From: Escherichia phage HK3
DNA length: 64,000 nucleotides
Reading direction: 5' to 3' (one strand)
Sequence record: PP526765
The notes below the pieces were generated by a model that ran no database searches, was not told the origin of the DNA, and saw nothing but the letters and a program-made list of their open reading frames with translations. Positions 6,917 through 13,500 of this stretch are shown piece by piece. The translations under genes were made by a program, and so were the position numbers. Every line of letters begins with the position of its first letter. The first letter of the stretch is position 1.

Positions 6917-8332
6917 ATGAGCAAGTTATTTAAACATGCGCACCTTCATGCAGGTCGAACTGAAAATGGTGCTGTAAACCATACTTCATCAATGTCTGCT
7001 CTGGTAGACTTCTACAAAGCCGCTGGTTCAAGCCGTAGCAATGTAGAAATCTTACCAGACCTGTTCTACAAAGCTTTGCGTGAGGATGTTGATGTTGCAG
7101 TTCGTATTTTACTGCATATGCGAGATGTACGAGAAGGTATGGGCGAGCGTAAAGCTTTCCGAACTGTTTTGCTTCAAGCGATTGAAGATAAGGTTTTAGA
7201 ACCTACACAGGTTCTTCGCATTATGGATAAGATTGCAGAACTTGGTCGTTTTGATGACTTCAAAATCTTTGTAGGTACTCGTTTTGAGACAGACGCCTTC
7301 AAACATTTAGAAGCAGCATTACTAGACCCTGCAACAGCAGGTTTAGCAGCTAAGTGGTTGCCACGAGTAAAACCACGCCACAAACAGTTTGTAAAACGTT
7401 TCTGCAAGTTTGCAAACTTAAGTGAGAAGGAGTATCGCACACTGTTGTCTGCACTATCTGATACGGTTGAGCAAAAAATCTCTGCTAATGAGTTTGGTAA
7501 GATTGACTACAGCAAGATTCCTTCACTAGCTGCTGCACGTTACCAAAAACTCTTTAACCGTAAAGATGGTGAACGTTACAAAGCTTACATCGAGTCGCTC
7601 TCAAAGGGTGAGGCTAAGATTAATGCTGGTGCTGTTTACCCATACGATGTGATTAAATCTATTAAGTATGGTAATGCAGATGTTGCTAATGAGCAGTGGA
7701 AAGCACTTCCAAACTGGATGGCAGAAGGTGAAAACATCTTGTGTATGACTGATGTTTCAAGCTCAATGTCTTGGGTGAATCTTGGTTCAATCACTGCCCT
7801 TGATATTGGTGTATCACTTGCTTTGTATGTAGCAGAACGCAATACTGGTTGCTTTAAAGATGAGTTAATGGTTTACTCAACAAACCCTCACTTCATTGAA
7901 CTGAGTGGTGATTTACGAAACCGTCATCGTCAGGTGATGCGTCACGTTGAATATGGCTCAACTAACTTACAAGCAGCTTTTGACCGTATTCTTGAAATAG
8001 GTAAGAGAAACAACTTGACTCAGAAAGATATGCCAAGTAAGCTTATTATCTTCTCTGATATGGAGTTTAATCAGGTTGATGGTGCAAATGGTCATACAAA
8101 CTTTGAAGCAATTCAGAGTAAGTACAAAAAAGCCGGATACGAAATGCCACAACTAGTATTCTGGTACTTAGCAAACCGTAATGGTACTTGCGAAGTATCT
8201 GTTAAGGATAATGGTGTAGCAATGGTATCAGGGTTCTCTCCAGCCACTTTAAAAGCTCTACTTGGTGGTGAGAAGTTTGACCCAATCAGCGTAATGCTCA
8301 AAGCAGTAATGATTGACCGTTATATCTGGTAA
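6917..8332 (+). CDS. vWA-domain protein with Ro60-like architecture (alpha-helical N-domain + C-terminal vWA)
   Basis: 471 aa; MIDAS-like DVSSSMS ... GSTN ... IIFSDME in C-terminal half; helical N-terminal about 270 aa; lies immediately upstream of tRNA array. Confidence 0.6.
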   Translation: MSKLFKHAHLHAGRTENGAVNHTSSMSALVDFYKAAGSSRSNVEILPDLFYKALREDVDVAVRILLHMRDVREGMGERKAFRTVLLQAIEDKVLEPTQVLRIMDKIAELGRFDDFKIFVGTRFETDAFKHLEAALLDPATAGLAAKWLPRVKPRHKQFVKRFCKFANLSEKEYRTLLSALSDTVEQKISANEFGKIDYSKIPSLAAARYQKLFNRKDGERYKAYIESLSKGEAKINAGAVYPYDVIKSIKYGNADVANEQWKALPNWMAEGENILCMTDVSSSMSWVNLGSITALDIGVSLALYVAERNTGCFKDELMVYSTNPHFIELSGDLRNRHRQVMRHVEYGSTNLQAAFDRILEIGKRNNLTQKDMPSKLIIFSDMEFNQVDGANGHTNFEAIQSKYKKAGYEMPQLVFWYLANRNGTCEVSVKDNGVAMVSGFSPATLKALLGGEKFDPISVMLKAVMIDRYIW

Positions 8333-8497: not shown

Positions 8498-8574
8498 CTC
8501 TGTTTAGCTCAGCTTGGTAGAGCGTTCCGTTTGGGGCGGTAAGGCCGGAGGTTCAAGTCCTCCAACAGAGACCA
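8498..8574 (+). tRNA. tRNA-Pro (anticodon UGG)
   Basis: manual fold: acceptor CTCTGTT/AACAGAG, D-loop AGCTTGGTA, anticodon loop TTTGGGG, T-arm GGAGG-TTCAAGT-CCTCC, encoded CCA. Confidence 0.75.
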
Positions 8575-8581
8575 AATTAAT

Positions 8582-8659
8582 GTTCCAGTAGACAAAATGG
8601 TATAGTCACCACTCTTTCAAAGTGGATATTTGAGGGTTCAAATCCCTTCTGGAACGCCA
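8582..8659 (+). tRNA. tRNA-Glu (anticodon UUC)
   Basis: manual fold: acceptor GTTCCAG/CTGGAAC, anticodon stem CCACT/AGTGG loop CTTTCAA, T-loop TTCAAAT, CCA. Confidence 0.7.
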
Positions 8660-8666
8660 GTTTTGA

Positions 8667-8740
8667 CAGAAGACCAATTACAGCAAACTTAATCTTATTC
8701 ATCTGAAGGTAAATCGGACAAAGAAGAGATTTGGTCTGGT
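8667..8740 (+). ncRNA. inter-tRNA structured element a (conserved terminal helix)
   Basis: 5' CAGAAGACCAATTACAGCAA ... 3' TTGGTCTGG; terminal 7-bp helix AGACCAA/TTGGTCT. Confidence 0.45.
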
Positions 8741-8750
8741 CATTAAGAAT

Positions 8751-8827
8751 TGCGGGTATAGAGAAAGGGCGTCTCACATGTCTCATTAGCATGGTATCGG
8801 CAGGTTCGACTCCTGCACCCGCCTCCA
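8751..8827 (+). tRNA. tRNA-Met (anticodon CAU; 1:72 mismatch)
   Basis: manual fold: anticodon stem CATGT/GCATG loop CTCATTA, T-arm GCAGG-TTCGACT-CCTGC, acceptor TGCGGGT/ACCCGCC with U1xC72 mismatch, CCA. Confidence 0.6.
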
Positions 8828-8833
8828 AATTTA

Positions 8834-8897
8834 CAGAAGACCGTTTACAGCAATATTTATTAAATTTTTAGCGGAAAAATTGAAAGATACGGTCTGG
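8834..8897 (+). ncRNA. inter-tRNA structured element b
   Basis: 5' CAGAAGACCGTTTACAGCAA ... 3' ACGGTCTGG; helix AGACCGT/ACGGTCT (compensatory to element a); internal hairpin AATTTTT-AGCGG-AAAAATT. Confidence 0.45.
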
Positions 8898-8910
8898 TAA
8901 TACTAAACAT

Positions 8911-8987
8911 GGTTAGGAAGCACATAAGGTATGTGCGGTCGCCTGTTAAGCGAATGGCACAGGGTTCGAATCCCTGACTAACCGCCA
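8911..8987 (+). tRNA. tRNA-Asn (anticodon GUU)
   Basis: manual fold: acceptor GGTTAGG/ACTAACC, anticodon loop CTGTTAA, T-arm CAGGG-TTCGAAT-CCCTG, CCA. Confidence 0.7.
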
Positions 8988-9058
8988 AATTTAGGAGAGA
9001 AGCGATTGCTCACCGATTTGTAAGGTGCAAGTCCTTAGCCTGAATAGAATAATAAAAT

Positions 9059-9145
9059 GTGTCGTTATCCCGTAGATGGTAGCGGTGGGGACTGTAAATC
9101 CCTTGTCATTGAGACTCGGTAGGTTCGACTCCTACACGGCACACC
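9059..9145 (+). tRNA. tRNA-Tyr (anticodon GUA), long variable arm
   Basis: manual fold: acceptor GTGTCGT/ACGGCAC, anticodon stem GGGGA/TCCCT loop CTGTAAA, 15-nt variable arm, T-arm GTAGG-TTCGACT-CCTAC, CCA. Confidence 0.7.
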
Positions 9146-9207
9146 AATTTTGAGAGGGCTATTTAGCCCCTCCCTTAAAGAGTTCTTACGAGTACCCTTT
9201 AAAGGAG

Positions 9208-9281
9208 CAGAAGACCAAATACAGCAAGTTACTTAAAATTTCAAGCCAATTCAATTTTGAAAAATTTAAAACTTGGTCTGG
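9208..9281 (+). ncRNA. inter-tRNA structured element c
   Basis: 5' CAGAAGACCAAATACAGCAA ... 3' TTGGTCTGG; same terminal helix. Confidence 0.45.
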
Positions 9282-9294
9282 CTCAACAAATTTA

Positions 9295-9425
9295 CAGAAG
9301 ACCGTTTACAGCAAAACTTAAACAATCTATTTCTCGGTAAAGAAAAGGTGAAGGTTCGATTCCTTCACTCGGCAGATGTCGAGTTGGTGTAATGGTAGCA
9401 CTTAAGATGATAAACAACGGTCTGG
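9295..9425 (+). ncRNA. candidate Y-RNA-like (YrlA-like) RNA: terminal helix enclosing circularly permuted tRNA-like domain
   Basis: 5' CAGAAGACCGTTTACAGCAA ... 3' ACGGTCTGG helix; inside: T-arm GTGAAGG-TTCGATT-CCTTCAC (9348-9368), closed acceptor-like hairpin ACTCGGC-AGAT-GTCGAGT (9367-9384), D-arm GTGT-AATGGTA-GCAC (9387-9401); no anticodon arm. Confidence 0.5.
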
Positions 9426-9576
9426 TAATTATCTTTGCAGTAGCTTATGTGGCTAATTATATCGTCCCATGAGTGCCGATGAATTTCCTTAGCATGATTC
9501 TAGATTAGCTTAATAGGAAATGACTCTACAGACCCTTTAGCAAGGTCTGCGTAGGTTACTGCAAAGATAATTTAAT

Positions 9577-9652
9577 AGAAGTGTAGCAGAATGGTGATGC
9601 GGCAGACTTTTAATCTGATAGGTGATGGGTTCGAATCCCTCCACTTCTACCA
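9577..9652 (+). tRNA. tRNA-Lys (anticodon UUU)
   Basis: manual fold: acceptor AGAAGTG/CACTTCT, anticodon stem GCAGA/TCTGA loop CTTTTAA, CCA; T-stem weak (3 bp); homologous to Lys-CUU gene with compensatory changes. Confidence 0.6.
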
Positions 9653-9656
9653 ATAT

Positions 9657-9733
9657 GGTTCAGTCGCAGATAAGGTAATGCAGGGGTCTCATAAGCCCTA
9701 TGAATGTGGGTTCGATTCCCATCTGAGCCTCCA
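9657..9733 (+). tRNA. tRNA with anticodon CAU (Met or Ile-lysidine type)
   Basis: manual fold: acceptor GGTTCAG/CTGAGCC, anticodon stem GGGGT/GCCCT loop CTCATAA, T-arm GTGGG-TTCGATT-CCCAT, CCA. Confidence 0.65.
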
Positions 9734-9735
9734 AT

Positions 9736-9811
9736 GCTGTGAAAGCACATATGGATGTGCATTCGGCTGATAACCGAAAGGAAGAAGGTTCGAATCCTTC
9801 TCACAGTACCA
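9736..9811 (+). tRNA. tRNA-Ile (anticodon GAU)
   Basis: manual fold: acceptor GCTGTGA/TCACAGT, D-arm GCAC-ATATGGAT-GTGC, anticodon stem TTCGG/CCGAA loop CTGATAA, T-arm GAAGG-TTCGAAT-CCTTC, CCA. Confidence 0.8.
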
Positions 9812-9826
9812 ATTTCAATAAAGTTG

Positions 9827-9855
9827 TTGACATTGAGATGTGACCACTTTATAGT
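9827..9855 (+). promoter_or_regulatory. sigma70-like promoter (TTGACA-17-TATAGT) internal to tRNA region
   Basis: TTGACA 9827-9832, TATAGT 9850-9855. Confidence 0.6.
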
Positions 9856-10058
9856 AACCTTAGTTTTCGTTGCGTAGCGTCTATTTTGCAAATTTAAAAT
9901 AAATGCAAACGACAATGTTTTTCTGGCAGTAGCTTGATAGGCTAAACACCAGTGAGGTCTTCCAATCCCTCATCAAAGAATTTGGCGTACTAGCCCACGG
10001 TATGATTAATAAGGTGGGCATCTTTAAGGGTTTTTTAAGAGAGTCTTTAAAGATTAAT

Positions 10059-10135
10059 GCACCCTTAGTTCAACTGGACAGAACAAATGACTTCTAATCA
10101 TTAGGTTACAGGTTCGAATCCTGTAGGGTGTGCCA
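10059..10135 (+). tRNA. tRNA-Arg (anticodon UCU)
   Basis: manual fold: acceptor GCACCCT/AGGGTGT, D-arm GTTC-AACTGGACA-GAAC, anticodon stem AATGA/TCATT loop CTTCTAA, T-arm ACAGG-TTCGAAT-CCTGT, CCA. Confidence 0.8.
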
Positions 10136-10277
10136 AATAGTTAGCAGATTGCTTAGACGACCTTATCGGGTCTCCGTGTAGGGAGGTGGTCTGTATCTCA
10201 TGTTTTCCAGAACATGTAAATAATCTGAGAAGGGGCTTTACAGTGTTGAGATAATACGGTAAGCTTCGAATTATAGT

Positions 10278-10360
10278 ATGGGACGATGTTAAGACTCTAA
10301 GGCATGAGCAACGGCTTCCAACACCGTTTCAAAGGGATTCAACTCCTCCGTCCCATGCCA
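10278..10360 (+). tRNA. atypical tRNA-like gene (possible tRNA-Trp, anticodon CCA) with extra nucleotides between acceptor and D-arm
   Basis: perfect 7-bp acceptor ATGGGAC/GTCCCAT + G + CCA; anticodon-like loop TTCCAAC; D-region 8 nt longer than canonical; weak T-stem. Confidence 0.3.
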
Positions 10361-10373
10361 AAGTCTTATTAGG

Positions 10374-10461
10374 GGTAGGTAGCGGCTAATGGTAGCCAAA
10401 CTGTCTTGAAAACAGTTGCCACTGTAGAGATACGGTGAGGGTTCGACTCCTTTACTTACCG
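10374..10461 (+). tRNA. tRNA-Ser (anticodon UGA), long variable arm
   Basis: manual fold: acceptor GGTAGGT/ACTTACC, anticodon stem ACTGT/ACAGT loop CTTGAAA, about 20-nt variable arm, T-arm GAGGG-TTCGACT-CCTTT. Confidence 0.7.
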
Positions 10462-10617
10462 CCTAATAAGATTTAAAGCCAAGCTTCATTCGGATGTTGC
10501 TTTGGTATCCCTCGTGTATTGTCGTACACACTGATAAAGCACCTAGTAGGTGTCACGGAGAAGAGATAATATCAAGCTCTCCAAAGGTTCTAGTCACCGG
10601 ATTAAACAAGACTATGC

Positions 10618-10639
10618 AAAGACCTGTTTAGGTCTTTTT
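10618..10639 (+). terminator. terminator-like hairpin within tRNA region
   Basis: AAAGACC-TGTTTA-GGTCTTT followed by TTT. Confidence 0.3.
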
Positions 10640-10718
10640 AGAGGGCTTCTAAGGTTATTACAGCTTGTTGTGGAACCTTGTTGCTTAGGTTCTTAGAAGT
10701 TCTCTAAAAAGATTTAAT

Positions 10719-10795
10719 GCACCTATAGCCCAACTGGTAGAGGCAGCAGACTTAGAATCTGCTCAGTGTGAGTTCGAATCTCTCTAGGTGTACCA
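10719..10795 (+). tRNA. tRNA with anticodon UAG (Leu by code) but short variable arm
   Basis: manual fold: acceptor GCACCTA/TAGGTGT, anticodon stem GCAGA/TCTGC loop CTTAGAA, 5-nt variable loop, T-loop TTCGAAT, A73, CCA. Confidence 0.55.
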
Positions 10796-10802
10796 AATTA
10801 AT

Positions 10803-10878
10803 GCAGGTGTAGCAAAATGGTTATGCGGCTGACTCTTAATCAGTAAGACGATGGTTTCAATTCCCTCCACCTGTACCA
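10803..10878 (+). tRNA. tRNA-Lys (anticodon CUU)
   Basis: manual fold: acceptor GCAGGTG/CACCTGT, anticodon stem GCTGA/TCAGT loop CTCTTAA, CCA; paralog of Lys-UUU with compensatory stem changes. Confidence 0.6.
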
Positions 10879-10884
10879 GACATT

Positions 10885-10960
10885 GGGGATGTAGTTTACA
10901 TGGTTAAAACATAAGTTTTGCAAACTTAAGTACAGGGTTCAATTCCCTGCTTCTCCACCA
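10885..10960 (+). tRNA. tRNA-Ala (anticodon UGC)
   Basis: manual fold: acceptor GGGGATG/CTTCTCC with G3-U70 wobble (Ala identity), D-arm GTTT-ACATGGTTA-AAAC, anticodon stem TAAGT/ACTTA loop TTTGCAA, T-arm CAGGG-TTCAATT-CCCTG, CCA. Confidence 0.7.
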
Positions 10961-10966
10961 ATTAGT

Positions 10967-11041
10967 GCATCCATAGTTTAAACGGGAAAATTACAGTCTT
11001 CCAAACTGAGGTTGAGGGTTCGATTCCCTCTGGATGCTCCA
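10967..11041 (+). tRNA. tRNA-Gly (anticodon UCC)
   Basis: manual fold: acceptor GCATCCA/TGGATGC, anticodon loop CTTCCAA, T-arm GAGGG-TTCGATT-CCCTC, CCA. Confidence 0.7.
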
Positions 11042-11047
11042 AATAAT

Positions 11048-11124
11048 GCTGCTTTCGTATAATTGGCTATTACACATCCCTTGTAAGGATGGAAATGCAG
11101 GTTCGAGTCCTGTGAGCAGCACCA
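11048..11124 (+). tRNA. tRNA-Thr (anticodon UGU)
   Basis: manual fold: acceptor GCTGCTT/GAGCAGC, anticodon stem CATCC/GGATG loop CTTGTAA, T-arm GCAGG-TTCGAGT-CCTGT, CCA. Confidence 0.75.
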
Positions 11125-11219
11125 ATTCAGAGGTCAAGTGAAAGACCGCTGGTGTCAACTGAAGACCGTAACAAATTCCACGGAGTTGAGTTAGCGGCAC
11201 AACTTCAGACCTCTTTCAT

Positions 11220-11294
11220 ACTCGCTTAGTTTATATGGTAAAACACCACCCTTACAAGATGAAGAAAAAGGTTCAAGTCCTTTAGTGAGTACCA
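11220..11294 (+). tRNA. tRNA-like gene, possible tRNA-Val (anticodon UAC); weak anticodon stem
   Basis: acceptor ACTCGCT/AGTGAGT, D-arm GTTT-ATATGGTA-AAAC, T-arm AAAGG-TTCAAGT-CCTTT, CCA; anticodon stem only 3/5 paired. Confidence 0.4.
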
Positions 11295-11295
11295 T

Positions 11296-11373
11296 GTTCC
11301 AATATCCCAATTGGCAGAGGATGCAAGCTCAAACCTTGTACTAGTGACGGTTCGAATCCGTCTTGGAACACCA
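11296..11373 (+). tRNA. tRNA with anticodon CAA (Leu by code) but short variable arm
   Basis: manual fold: acceptor GTTCCAA/TTGGAAC, Leu-like D-loop AATTGGCAGAG, anticodon stem GCAAG/CTTGT loop CTCAAAC, 6-nt variable loop, T-arm GACGG-TTCGAAT-CCGTC, A73, CCA. Confidence 0.55.
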
Positions 11374-11487
11374 ATTTTGGGAGAGCACTATGAGTGATAA
11401 GTCAATAGCAAAAAAGTTTAGAGCGTCATACCTAAACAGACGTAAAAACAAAGATTGTGAAAAACTGTATGGTGTTCTTGTAGGTAA

Positions 11488-11563
11488 GCAGGATTAGTTC
11501 AAATGGATAGAGCAGCAGTCTACGAAGCTGTTAATAGGGGTTCGAATCCCTTATCCTGCGCCA
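11488..11563 (+). tRNA. tRNA-Arg (anticodon ACG)
   Basis: manual fold: acceptor GCAGGAT/ATCCTGC, D-arm GTTC-AAATGGATA-GAGC, anticodon stem GCAGT/GCTGT loop CTACGAA, T-arm AGGGG-TTCGAAT-CCCTT, CCA. Confidence 0.75.
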
Positions 11564-11582
11564 ATTTTAAGAGGCTATTTAG

Positions 11583-12140
11583 ATGAGATATTTGAAGTAT
11601 GCTTCATGGATTTTCCTAGCTTTGTTAGACCCATTGGCAGCAACCTTAGCAGTTATCTTAGCACCTTTTGTAGTTCCATTCTACAGTGAGAAGAAAGGGC
11701 ACTTACCTTTCGGCTTCAGATGGATGGAGACATATGACAACCCAATTGATGGTGATAAAGGTCATGTTGAACGATGGGCTAAGATTAGAAAGATTGGTAA
11801 GCTTGGTGTCTATATGCAGAGAGTCGGTTGGCTCTGGAGAAACAAAGCTTATAACTTCTCTTACCATGTGTTAGGAAGAGATGTAAAAGATGTTACTAAG
11901 TGGAAAGGTAATATCAACGTAAGCTCTGACCCTGAAGATAATCAGACAGGTTATCTCCTAATGTGGAACAGTAATGCTTGGGGATTATTCGCTTTTATCC
12001 CATCAATTAAAGTCTTTGGTAAACAATTCTACTGGAGAATTTATATTGGGTGGAAACTAAAAAGTGTTGTCCCAGAAGAAAGAGCATTCTCAAGGGAAAG
12101 AGTTATGTTGGCATTCTTTATTCATCCACTGAGAAAGTAA
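11583..12140 (+). CDS. hypothetical membrane-anchored protein embedded in tRNA array
   Basis: 185 aa, ATG with AAGAGG upstream; N-terminal hydrophobic segment ASWIFLALLDPLAATLAVILAPFVVPF. Confidence 0.5.
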   Translation: MRYLKYASWIFLALLDPLAATLAVILAPFVVPFYSEKKGHLPFGFRWMETYDNPIDGDKGHVERWAKIRKIGKLGVYMQRVGWLWRNKAYNFSYHVLGRDVKDVTKWKGNINVSSDPEDNQTGYLLMWNSNAWGLFAFIPSIKVFGKQFYWRIYIGWKLKSVVPEERAFSRERVMLAFFIHPLRK

Positions 12141-12148
12141 AGATTTAA

Positions 12149-12224
12149 AGGGGATTAGTTTACAAGGTTAAAACCTCGGTCTTTGAAATCGAAGAAGTTG
12201 GTTCAATTCCAACATCCCCCGCCA
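12149..12224 (+). tRNA. tRNA-Gln (anticodon UUG)
   Basis: manual fold: acceptor AGGGGAT/ATCCCCC (A1xC72), D-arm GTTT-ACAAGGTTA-AAAC, anticodon stem TCGGT/ATCGA loop CTTTGAA, T-arm GTTGG-TTCAATT-CCAAC, CCA. Confidence 0.65.
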
Positions 12225-12226
12225 AT

Positions 12227-12305
12227 GCTCCATTACTCCAATTGGCAGAGAGGCCAGACTTAAAATCTGTGTTATGTATCGGTTCGAATCCGATATGGAG
12301 TACCA
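12227..12305 (+). tRNA. tRNA with anticodon UAA (Leu by code) but short variable arm
   Basis: manual fold: acceptor GCTCCAT/ATGGAGT, Leu-like D-loop AATTGGCAGAG, anticodon loop CTTAAAA, 7-nt variable loop, T-arm ATCGG-TTCGAAT-CCGAT, A73, CCA. Confidence 0.55.
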
Positions 12306-12310
12306 AATTT

Positions 12311-12386
12311 AGCGGTATAGCATAACTGGCAATGCAACAGTCTCTGAAGCTGTCTTATTAAGGTTCAAATCCTTATGCCGCTGCCA
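12311..12386 (+). tRNA. tRNA-Gln (anticodon CUG)
   Basis: manual fold: acceptor AGCGGTA/TGCCGCT, D-arm GCAT-AACTGGCA-ATGC, anticodon stem ACAGT/GCTGT loop CTCTGAA, T-arm TAAGG-TTCAAAT-CCTTA, CCA. Confidence 0.7.
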
Positions 12387-12417
12387 CTTCTAAGGATTCT
12401 TACGAGAGTCCTTAAAT

Positions 12418-12493
12418 GTGGCCTTATCATAAACGGTAATGACCCATGCTGTGAACATGGTCTATACGGGTTCAAATCCCGTAGGTCACCCCA
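12418..12493 (+). tRNA. tRNA-His (anticodon GUG)
   Basis: manual fold: acceptor GTGGCCT/AGGTCAC, D-arm TCAT-AAACGGTA-ATGA, anticodon stem CCATG/CATGG loop CTGTGAA, T-arm ACGGG-TTCAAAT-CCCGT, C73, CCA. Confidence 0.75.
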
Positions 12494-12498
12494 ATTTA

Positions 12499-12575
12499 TA
12501 GTCCAAGTAGCTTATATGGTTAAAGCGCGTGTCTGAAAAACATGAGAAGAGGGTTCAAATCCCACTGGATTACCA
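12499..12575 (+). tRNA. tRNA-Phe (anticodon GAA); acceptor/D junction atypical
   Basis: D-arm GCTT-ATATGGTTA-AAGC, anticodon stem CGTGT/ACATG loop CTGAAAA, T-loop TTCAAAT; acceptor TAGTCCA/TGGATTA leaves 4 nt before D-stem. Confidence 0.5.
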
Positions 12576-12591
12576 ATTTCAAAGGTGCTTA

Positions 12592-13326
12592 ATGAAAGAG
12601 ATGACAGAACAAGGTAAGGAGATTTTTAATCTCTTAAAAACTGGTAAAGGGTTTTCTAACCCCCTTATTACTGGTGCAGCAGTTCTCGGTGGAACCGTAG
12701 CTGCCTCTACATCACTTGTAAGCTCTATTAGCTCTGTAACAGACCCTACAATAAAGGATAAACTTATTGCTGCTGGACTTACAACAGTTCTGCTTAACAG
12801 CTTTACAACGAGTCTGACAAGCACTACAGCAACTACTAAGACCCTAACAGACTATGGTCAAAAATCTATTGATGAGTTTTCATCACGTATGCAGGTAGCA
12901 AAGGGATACTCCAATGTTATGGGTGCAGTAGGAGAACAAGTTGGTTGTACACCATTTAGTGGTATTATGGGTGTTGCTACAGAGTATGGTCAAAAAGCTA
13001 TGGATACAATTAACAGCACACTAGATGGCGTTAATGATGTATTAAGCGACTTACAGGATGCTATTGATAAAGGTCTTAATACTATTTCTGATTTAGCTAA
13101 CCAAGCTGTTAGTAAGATTAATGAAGGTATCTCAAAGATTACAGCTTATGCAGATGAAGTTGTGCAGATGATTGAAGAAGAAGCTGCCCTTATTGCAGAG
13201 TACCTTAAAACGAATATCAATGGGTTCTTAGCAGGTATCTTACCAGACTGGTTTGATGATGCTTGTAAAACTGGTGTGATTGACACTATTGCAACACCAG
13301 AAATGAAGAACGCATTACAGAAATAA
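12592..13326 (+). CDS. hypothetical Ser/Thr-rich protein
   Basis: ATG at 12592 with AAAGGTG upstream (track ORF from 12529 would overlap tRNA-Phe); 244 aa. Confidence 0.5.
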   Translation: MKEMTEQGKEIFNLLKTGKGFSNPLITGAAVLGGTVAASTSLVSSISSVTDPTIKDKLIAAGLTTVLLNSFTTSLTSTTATTKTLTDYGQKSIDEFSSRMQVAKGYSNVMGAVGEQVGCTPFSGIMGVATEYGQKAMDTINSTLDGVNDVLSDLQDAIDKGLNTISDLANQAVSKINEGISKITAYADEVVQMIEEEAALIAEYLKTNINGFLAGILPDWFDDACKTGVIDTIATPEMKNALQK

Positions 13327-13327
13327 C

Positions 13328-13420
13328 GGAAGATTAACCCTAAAAGGTAAGGGAGCAGTTTGCTAAACTGCCAGTAGCTGAGAAATCGGTGTACCAGTTC
13401 AAGTCTGGTATCTTCCTCCA
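13328..13420 (+). tRNA. tRNA-Ser (anticodon GCU), long variable arm
   Basis: manual fold: acceptor GGAAGAT/ATCTTCC, anticodon stem GCAGT/ACTGC loop TTGCTAA, long variable arm, T-arm ACCAG-TTCAAGT-CTGGT, CCA. Confidence 0.7.
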
Positions 13421-13424
13421 ATTT

Positions 13425-13500
13425 GAATCCGTGACAGAAATGGCTATGTACCTGTCTGCAAAACAGGTTTATAAGGGTTCGAGTCCCTTCGGATTCTCCA
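13425..13500 (+). tRNA. tRNA-Cys (anticodon GCA)
   Basis: manual fold: acceptor GAATCCG/CGGATTC, anticodon stem CCTGT/ACAGG loop CTGCAAA, T-arm AAGGG-TTCGAGT-CCCTT, U73 (Cys identity), CCA. Confidence 0.75.

Follow-up and report, generated by a model that had tools for sequence, protein, structure and literature searches.

Leucine tRNA genes with short variable loops in a Felixounavirus-like Escherichia phage and their probable charging by the host synthetase

In textbooks the long variable arm is treated as a constant of leucine tRNAs outside mitochondria. The searchable literature offers a single bacterial exception, a tRNA of Streptomyces that is called rare (Fan et al. 2019, PMC6614811), and for bacteria the term 'type I tRNALeu' was found only in that study; no paper on short-arm leucine tRNAs of phages turned up in the same literature, and the work on retron evasion, VapC52 and CRISPRi-ART contained nothing bearing on them. 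Here we describe three such genes, with the leucine anticodons UAG, CAA and UAA, in the tRNA cluster of Escherichia phage HK3 (sequence record PP526765); they lie in a stretch of 64,000 nucleotides (nt), which was analysed as a whole and is called the window below. Genes of this kind already bear the annotation tRNA-Leu, and leucine tRNAs of type I have been described in animal mitochondria and in Streptomyces coelicolor.

In S. coelicolor, the organism's own leucyl-tRNA synthetase (LeuRS) was shown experimentally to charge a type I tRNALeu(CAA), and this ability was attributed to the leucine-specific domain of the Streptomyces-type enzyme (Fan et al. 2019, PMC6614811). This tRNA shares with those of the phage a leucine anticodon, U8:A14 and a variable loop of 5 nt (ACAGC, against UCAGU in the phage tRNA-Leu(UAG)), whereas the other two phage tRNAs have loops of 6 and 7 nt; moreover, it carries C48 and its LeuRS ignores A73, while both U48 and A73 occur in the phage set, as in E. 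coli. Unlike Streptomyces, the hosts of the phage possess type II tRNALeu only. The E. coli tRNAs leuZ (UAA, 87 nt), leuX (CAA, 85 nt) and leuW (UAG, 85 nt), all of type II, have the same three anticodons as the phage set and share with it A73, U8:A14, A15:U48, G18G19, A20a and the geometry of the D arm, as well as G1.U72 in the UAA species, but they have arms of 13-15 nt, G9, G12-C23, R13 and U32, where the phage tRNAs have loops of 5-7 nt, A9, C12-G23, C13 and C32. As cited in a review (Larkin et al. 2002, in PMC9976931), minimalist E. coli tRNALeu without the variable and anticodon arms was still leucylated by way of A73 and the D-loop/T-loop pairs; on that account these were laboratory constructs, of which the phage tRNAs would be natural counterparts with a normal anticodon arm. 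Among phages, the tRNA-Leu of T4 (87 nt) and of T5 (85 nt) are both type II, unlike those of the window, and the D stem of the T4 tRNA has C12-G23, as in the window tRNAs. Human mitochondrial tRNALeu(UUR), which we liken to the phage tRNAs by description only, also has a short variable loop, with A73 and A14 as identity elements; however, a dedicated mitochondrial LeuRS serves it, and its structure is floppy and non-canonical, whereas the D and T loops of the phage tRNAs are canonical.

Short variable loops and leucine identity elements

ARAGORN placed the three genes within a cluster of 25 tRNA genes (8498-13500), with boundaries identical to those of a first-pass annotation of this DNA, which had called three tRNAs with leucine anticodons that lack the long variable arm. 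Two models were used to score them, the general tRNA model, Rfam RF00005 (gathering threshold 29 bits), and R1, a covariance model for which 58 leucine tRNAs of type II were collected from other viral contigs as well as from T5 and E. coli and their anticodons set to NNN; R1 stood in for isotype-specific models:

10719-10795, plus strand: tRNA-Leu(UAG), type I, 77 nt; ARAGORN; Rfam 57.3 bits; R1 59.3 bits, rank 1 of 25
11296-11373, plus strand: tRNA-Leu(CAA), type I, 78 nt; ARAGORN; Rfam 47.0 bits, full-length alignment; R1 52.0 bits, rank 3-4 of 25
12227-12305, plus strand: tRNA-Leu(UAA), type I, 79 nt; ARAGORN; Rfam 47.5 bits; R1 53.3 bits, rank 2 of 25

Their layouts are the following:

Leu(UAG): GCACCUA UA GCCC-AACUGGUAG-A-GGC A GCAGA CUUAGAA UCUGC UCAGU GUGAG UUCGAAU CUCUC UAGGUGU ACCA
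Leu(CAA): GUUCCAA UA UCCC-AAUUGGCAG-A-GGA U GCAAG CUCAAAC CUUGU ACUAGU GACGG UUCGAAU CCGUC UUGGAAC ACCA
Leu(UAA): GCUCCAU UA CUCC-AAUUGGCAG-A-GAG G CCAGA CUUAAAA UCUGU GUUAUGU AUCGG UUCGAAU CCGAU AUGGAGU ACCA

With the standard 5-bp anticodon and T stems assumed, the variable loop reads UCAGU in the UAG species (5 nt), ACUAGU in the CAA species (6 nt) and GUUAUGU in the UAA species (7 nt), which agrees with the 5-7 nt read at first, and none of the three tRNAs has the variable region of more than 10 nt with a stem-loop that defines type II. Only 74-76 nt are available up to position 73, so a long arm cannot fit. All three Rfam scores exceed the gathering threshold, and the anticodons given by Rfam and ARAGORN are those of the first-pass annotation; nor did a long arm come to light that it had misfolded, and by its own account other anticodons or isotypes, or such arms, would have overturned it. 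Its premise that bacterial and T4 tRNA-Leu are type II is borne out, for E. coli and T4, by the lengths given above. In the same cluster, a stem is found in the variable region of the tyrosine and of both serine tRNAs, which measures 15-21 nt:

9059-9146, plus strand: tRNA-Tyr(GUA), 88 nt, 15-nt variable region with a stem (type II)
10374-10463, plus strand: tRNA-Ser(UGA), 90 nt, long variable arm kept
13328-13420, plus strand: tRNA-Ser(GCU), 93 nt, long variable arm kept

A73 was found in all three leucine tRNAs, as first read, and the CCA end is encoded in each gene. The D loop is AAUUGGCAG-A in the CAA and UAA species, the two in which a leucine-like loop had been recognised, and AACUGGUAG-A in the UAG species, which counts as equally leucine-like because E. 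coli leuW has AAUUGGUAG-A. Single-sequence folding gave unremarkable values (z = -0.16 to -1.6), and the minimum-free-energy fold of Leu(UAA) was not a cloverleaf; as such folding is uninformative here, covariance models and covariation were used instead. Among 73 phage members with less than 90% identity and a 5-nt variable loop, which were selected with ARAGORN, a program that itself demands a cloverleaf, 97.9% of the cells were paired, with 566 double-change cells and double changes at 19 of the 20 pairs. The covariation score was 1.035; shuffles gave 0.23 and slid partners no more than 0.18, and covariation was strong in all four helices.

The identity of E. coli tRNALeu depends crucially on A73 and requires neither the long arm nor the anticodon (Giege and Eriani 2023, PMC9976931). 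In vitro selection (SELEX, systematic evolution of ligands by exponential enrichment) found A15-U48, G18G19 and A20a to be essential, the interactions G18:U55, G19-C56 and U54:A58 matter as well, and variants without anticodon and variable arms stay active (PMC9976931); A14 is added to the leucine identity elements in the introduction of Fan et al. 2019 (PMC6614811). The full published non-anticodon set is present in all three phage tRNAs, which have U8, A14, A15 and, as final base of the variable loop, U48 (the pairing being deduced from the sequence), a T loop UUCGAAU (U54, U55, C56, A58) and a D arm of the form NYCC-AAYUGGYAG-A-GRN, with G18G19, A20a, a 3-bp stem and a 9-nt loop in the order A14 A15 Y U G18 G19 Y A20a G21. 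The D-arm geometry, an unusual one, matches that of leuZ, leuW and leuX; 13.22 is unpaired in both sets, as C.A in the phage tRNAs and as G.A or A.A in those of E. coli. Leu(UAG) and Leu(UAA) combine G1.U72 with A73, the former with A37 and the latter with the A36A37A38 motif.

A composite signature, made up of the 17-nt D arm with fixed positions, A73 and U48, occurred in 23 of 46 leucine tRNAs and in none of 558 non-leucine tRNAs from a sample of viral contigs taken independently of leucine tRNAs; in the window it was found in the three leucine tRNAs and in none of the other 22. Under R1, where Leu(CAA) ties for rank 3 with tRNA-Glu, these three alone among the 25 tRNAs of the window have scores that equal or exceed those under the general model, and the values 59.3, 53.3 and 52.0 bits were reached by 0, 2 and 4, respectively, of 451 control non-leucine tRNAs of type I. 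The top three type I scorers in the control set were all independent type I leucine tRNAs. An origin of the genes from another isotype through a change of anticodon was also considered, and is rejected in view of the leucine-specific D arm together with A73 and U48.

Conservation and relatives in phages and bacteria

The 2.1 kb around the short-arm genes matched 255 records of Felix O1-group phages, with Escherichia phage vB_EcoM_DE7 as the best match (98.2%) and Salmonella phage FelixO1 at 94.6%; the window, whose G+C content is 39%, thus belongs to a genome of the Felixounavirus kind, about 86-90 kb in size. Leu(CAA) is 97.4% identical in FelixO1, Mordin and DaR-2019b, and Leu(UAA) is 98.7-100% identical in the same three phages (98.7% in Mordin). 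Compared with Citrobacter phage Mordin, which belongs to a different genus, the open reading frame (ORF) inside the cluster is 76.5% and the alignable spacers are 87% identical. The Leu(UAG) slot holds the window allele in 84 phage records (at least 95% identity), including wV8 and Moogle, and a 78-nt allele unrelated to it, whose D arm is irregular, in 162 others, including Felix O1; type I applies to both. The three genes have borne the annotation tRNA-Leu from the record of Felix O1 onwards, and its genome paper gives them Cove scores of 46-58 and leaves the missing arm unremarked. The comparison with related phages that had been proposed at the outset therefore finds the short-arm genes kept in the Felix O1 relatives and, as described below, recurring in unrelated phages. 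The swapping of single tRNA genes between otherwise near-identical relatives was seen at 10719-10795, 10885-10960 and 11048-11124: tRNA-Ala is 75-76% identical to that of Felix O1, Mordin and DaR-2019b, where the neighbouring tRNAs are 96-100% identical, and tRNA-Thr is 74-75% identical to that of Mordin and DaR-2019b.

To the family we assigned tRNAs with a leucine anticodon, a variable loop of about 5 nt and canonical D and T loops, as the window genes have. A scan of viral contigs for a leucine-like D loop separated from the T loop by the type I distance, which is biased by design, returned at least 120 loci; among the matches listed, 110 leucine tRNAs had a short arm and 28 a long one, and the arm was long in 79 of 82 serine and 33 of 35 tyrosine tRNAs (ARAGORN). 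In the leucine-independent sample, short arms were found in 7 of 45 leucine tRNAs (about 16%), 1 of 37 serine tRNAs and 3 of 17 tyrosine tRNAs. Phages with members of the family include:

Erwinia phage SunLIRen: three type I leucine genes, 77-78 nt by ARAGORN (79-80 nt as annotated)
Mycobacterium phage QBert: type I leucine tRNA, 74-76 nt
Pseudomonas phage vB_PseuGesM_254: type I leucine tRNA
Klebsiella phage vB_KpM_FBKp34: type I leucine tRNA, 78 nt
Cronobacter phage CR3: type I leucine tRNA, 77-78 nt by ARAGORN (74-75 nt as annotated)

Three unrelated lineages of Enterobacteria phages, the Ounavirinae, Klebsiella phage FBKp34 and Cronobacter phage CR3, thus carry type I leucine genes. Homologues annotated as tRNA-Leu were also found by blastn in Streptomyces, Gordonia, Enterococcus and Bacillus phages; these are known by annotation and not by arm length.

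A scan of 185,579 bacterial species genomes with a leucine-specific type I pattern also returned at least 120 loci, and type I tRNA-Leu occurs in at least 120 bacterial species, which among the matches listed are mostly Actinomycetota (genera including Mycobacterium, Nocardia, Gordonia, Corynebacterium, Pseudonocardia, Micromonospora and Cellulomonas), with some in Planctomycetota, Acidobacteriota and Myxococcales. The anticodons of the listed bacterial genes were UAA in 60, CAA in 48, UAG in 18, CAG in 11 and GAG in 8, and in 93 of 120 listed loci, on contigs of up to 7 Mb, the gene was the sole tRNA within 8 kb. These bacterial members have the architecture UA-GCCC-AAYUGGCAG-A-GGC, a variable loop NCAGU and A73. 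The window Leu(UAG) is 84-85% identical to some actinobacterial members, which are chromosomal tRNA-Leu(UAA) genes, and 81% identical to members in Pseudomonas and Mycobacterium phages. One of the two options offered at first was that the phage uses minimalist leucine tRNAs; this interpretation has to be refined in that the trait is not peculiar to the phage, the family being common to many phages and to actinomycetotal chromosomes.

Neither A73 nor U48 was part of the search patterns, and their joint background frequency is 15%. Of the distinct type I leucine sequences in the listed matches, the viral ones had A73 in 113 of 114 cases and U48 in all 114, and the genomic ones had each of the two in 121 of 123. 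Roughly three in four viral members resemble the window tRNAs in having A9 and C13, and about one in four shows a host-like D arm with G9 and R13; the existence of these two classes suggests more than one origin of type I tRNA-Leu. A bolder idea, to which we give only a small chance, is that type I tRNA-Leu forms a mobile lineage, spread largely by phages, that would work with the LeuRS of distant phyla including, against the published picture of a type II-only enzyme, that of E. coli; the loss of the arm might then have been selected, as it could remove a handle for defence nucleases or for mischarging by the seryl- and tyrosyl-tRNA synthetases (SerRS, TyrRS) at no cost to leucylation.

Codon use and probable charging by the host synthetase

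In the ORFs of the window the leucine codons are shared out as UUA 26%, UUG 14%, CUU 28%, CUC 6%, CUA 11% and CUG 15%, against 11, 11, 15, 13, 3 and 46%, respectively, in a 49-kb sample of E. coli processed in the same way as the window. The three anticodons therefore match codons over-used by the phage, namely UUA, UUG and CUA, and leave the abundant CUG reader of the host unduplicated. When the window's eight largest ORFs were searched, no aminoacyl-tRNA synthetase domain was found in them; they comprise tape measure, tail fibre, primase-helicase, two ribonucleotide reductases, portal, baseplate and one of unknown function, and the sole ORF of the size of a LeuRS is the tail fibre. As the Felix O1 genome paper does not report an aminoacyl-tRNA synthetase either, charging would fall to the LeuRS of the host.

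We consider it likely, with a probability of about 0.8, that the genes encode three functional, leucine-accepting type I tRNAs, which are processed by the host, charged by its LeuRS and used to decode leucine codons favoured by the phage; their expression, processing, leucylation and use in translation are predicted from sequence. After processing by host enzymes, the LeuRS of E. coli or Salmonella would attach leucine by reading A73 and the core formed by the D loop, the T loop and the Levitt pair, with no arm required. The UAA and CAA anticodons would then read UUA and UUG, and the UAG anticodon CUA or, more broadly, CUN, all of which are commoner in the AT-rich phage than in the host. According to published work, bacterial LeuRS disregards the anticodon and can do without the long arm, so a tRNA that keeps the core can drop the arm and still be charged; tRNA-Ser and tRNA-Tyr cannot do so, because their synthetases use it. 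The Leu(UAG) gene, the only one searched in this way, gave no blastn match in 5,426 complete E. coli genomes, including prophages and plasmids, so that the host enzyme would meet such a tRNA only during infection.

On the other hand, several observations weigh against this interpretation. In the Streptomyces study, 1 nM E. coli LeuRS failed to leucylate a transcript of the S. coelicolor type I tRNALeu(CAA), and the enzyme was described as type II-only (Fan et al. 2019, PMC6614811). However, the Streptomyces tRNA has C48, and E. coli LeuRS reportedly needs A15-U48; thus, this negative result may not carry over to the phage tRNAs with U48. Crystal structures show the variable arm in contact with two basic residues in the C-terminal domain of LeuRS, K809 and R811 (PMC12360207), and loss of the arm may therefore cost affinity. 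With A37 in Leu(UAG) and no A38 in Leu(CAA), the pattern of modification by the host may differ too, and in one relative the Felix O1-type Leu(UAG) allele was labelled 'tRNA-OTHER' and pseudo in a tRNAscan-based annotation; this label concerns a different allele from that of the window, on which none was seen. Such findings could be accommodated if the tRNAs were made but were poor substrates of enterobacterial LeuRS, or none at all, and served as decoys for tRNA-targeting nucleases or as regulatory RNAs, or had come down as baggage from a phage lineage that infects another host. The failure of the E. coli enzyme with the Streptomyces tRNA and the contacts of the LeuRS C-terminal domain with the arm would fit this explanation, as would the 84-85% identity of Leu(UAG) to actinobacterial chromosomal genes with another anticodon (UAA), the two very different alleles that replace each other in the UAG slot of close relatives and the lack of a Leu(UAG) homologue in the E. 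coli genomes searched. We hold it to be unlikely, given the complete E. coli identity set, U48 included, the very high conservation across genera that infect Enterobacteria, the carriage of type I leucine genes by three unrelated enterobacterial phage lineages, anticodons that fit the over-used codons, and the reported activity of arm-less minimal tRNALeu with E. coli LeuRS (PMC9976931). Leucylation of the phage tRNAs by the host LeuRS is, on this evidence from the sequences, most likely.

The first-pass annotation had left the choice between minimalist leucine tRNAs and tRNAs of another identity. For the latter, by which a different amino acid would be attached and leucine codons recoded or mistranslated, speak the missing arm, which defines the class, and the tRNA-Glu of the phage, which has the same D-arm geometry and reaches 52.0 bits under R1; the geometry by itself thus does not single out leucine. 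The identity set, the ranking under R1 and A73 with U48 throughout the family favour the minimalist alternative instead, and another identity is very improbable: most E. coli synthetases depend on anticodon bases, which here are those of leucine (summarised in PMC9976931), A73 rules out Glu, Gln, Asn and Ser, all of which have G73, G3.U70 (Ala) is absent, as is a long arm for SerRS or TyrRS, A73, U48 and the leucine D arm were never combined in the 558 non-leucine tRNAs, and replacing leucine at 51% of the phage leucine codons would be deleterious. That the genes are pseudogenes, or artefacts of gene finders that mis-predict tRNAs, is scarcely credible, although the folding energies are unremarkable, Leu(UAA) did not fold into a cloverleaf and some records mark relatives as pseudo; against it stand Rfam scores of 47-57 bits, the strong covariation of the family, conservation of 97-100% between genera, and the encoded CCA, A73 and canonical T loop.

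The anticodon loops show some further peculiarities. Position 32 is C in all three phage tRNAs and U in leuZ, leuW and leuX; position 37 is A in Leu(UAG) and G, a site of m1G37, in leuW; in Leu(CAA), C38 stands for A38 and breaks the A36A37A38 motif. A Klebsiella phage homologue has a host-like anticodon loop, UUUAGGU. These differences may bear on modification or on the evasion of anticodon nucleases.

Other features of the cluster and significance of the compact tRNAs

Two protein genes lie inside the tRNA cluster, at 11583-12140 and 12592-13326 (both plus strand), and belong to the families DUF7338 and DUF7217, of unknown function; relatives have insertions of HNH endonucleases in this part of the cluster. 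A permissive Rfam scan of the cluster revealed no additional RNA genes, only chance matches below threshold. In Felix O1 a tRNA-Asp directly follows tRNA-Tyr, and the corresponding gap of 430 bp in the window (9147-9576) has no tRNA call, a short T-arm-like match at 9348-9366 being the sole trace in it; a tRNA gene may have been lost or replaced there. U73 was found in both tRNA(CAU) genes (8751-8827 and 9657-9733), the first of which has positions 1-72 unpaired, as in initiators, and in tRNA-Ser(GCU) (13328-13420), and so differs from the usual E. coli discriminators, A73 for Met and Ile2 and G73 for Ser. Directly upstream of the cluster, an ORF of 471 amino acids (6917-8332, plus strand) combines DUF2828 and DUF7788 with a weak vWA domain. 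Its counterpart in Citrobacter phage Mordin is annotated as an RNA-binding protein, and in the unrelated Klebsiella phage vB_KpM_FBKp34 a DUF2828 protein likewise lies directly upstream of the tRNA cluster; it may be a tRNA-associated factor of the Ro60/TROVE kind, and a sequence search of the PDB with the DUF2828 protein found no relative.

What appears to be new, as far as the sequences tell, is that a classic enterobacterial phage would rely solely on type I leucine tRNAs with a full identity set of the E. coli style, and that the type I family seems to be far commoner in phages and Actinomycetota than the searchable literature implies. For those who annotate genomes, this is a warning that short-arm leucine genes are prone to be labelled 'pseudo' or 'OTHER', and the genes may offer compact leucine tRNA scaffolds for engineering. 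The finding fits the established identity rules but conflicts with a published statement on E. coli LeuRS. Set against a host that has long-arm leucine tRNAs only, the three natural arm-less tRNAs would constitute a natural test of the need of E. coli LeuRS for the arm, a question on which the published statements conflict.

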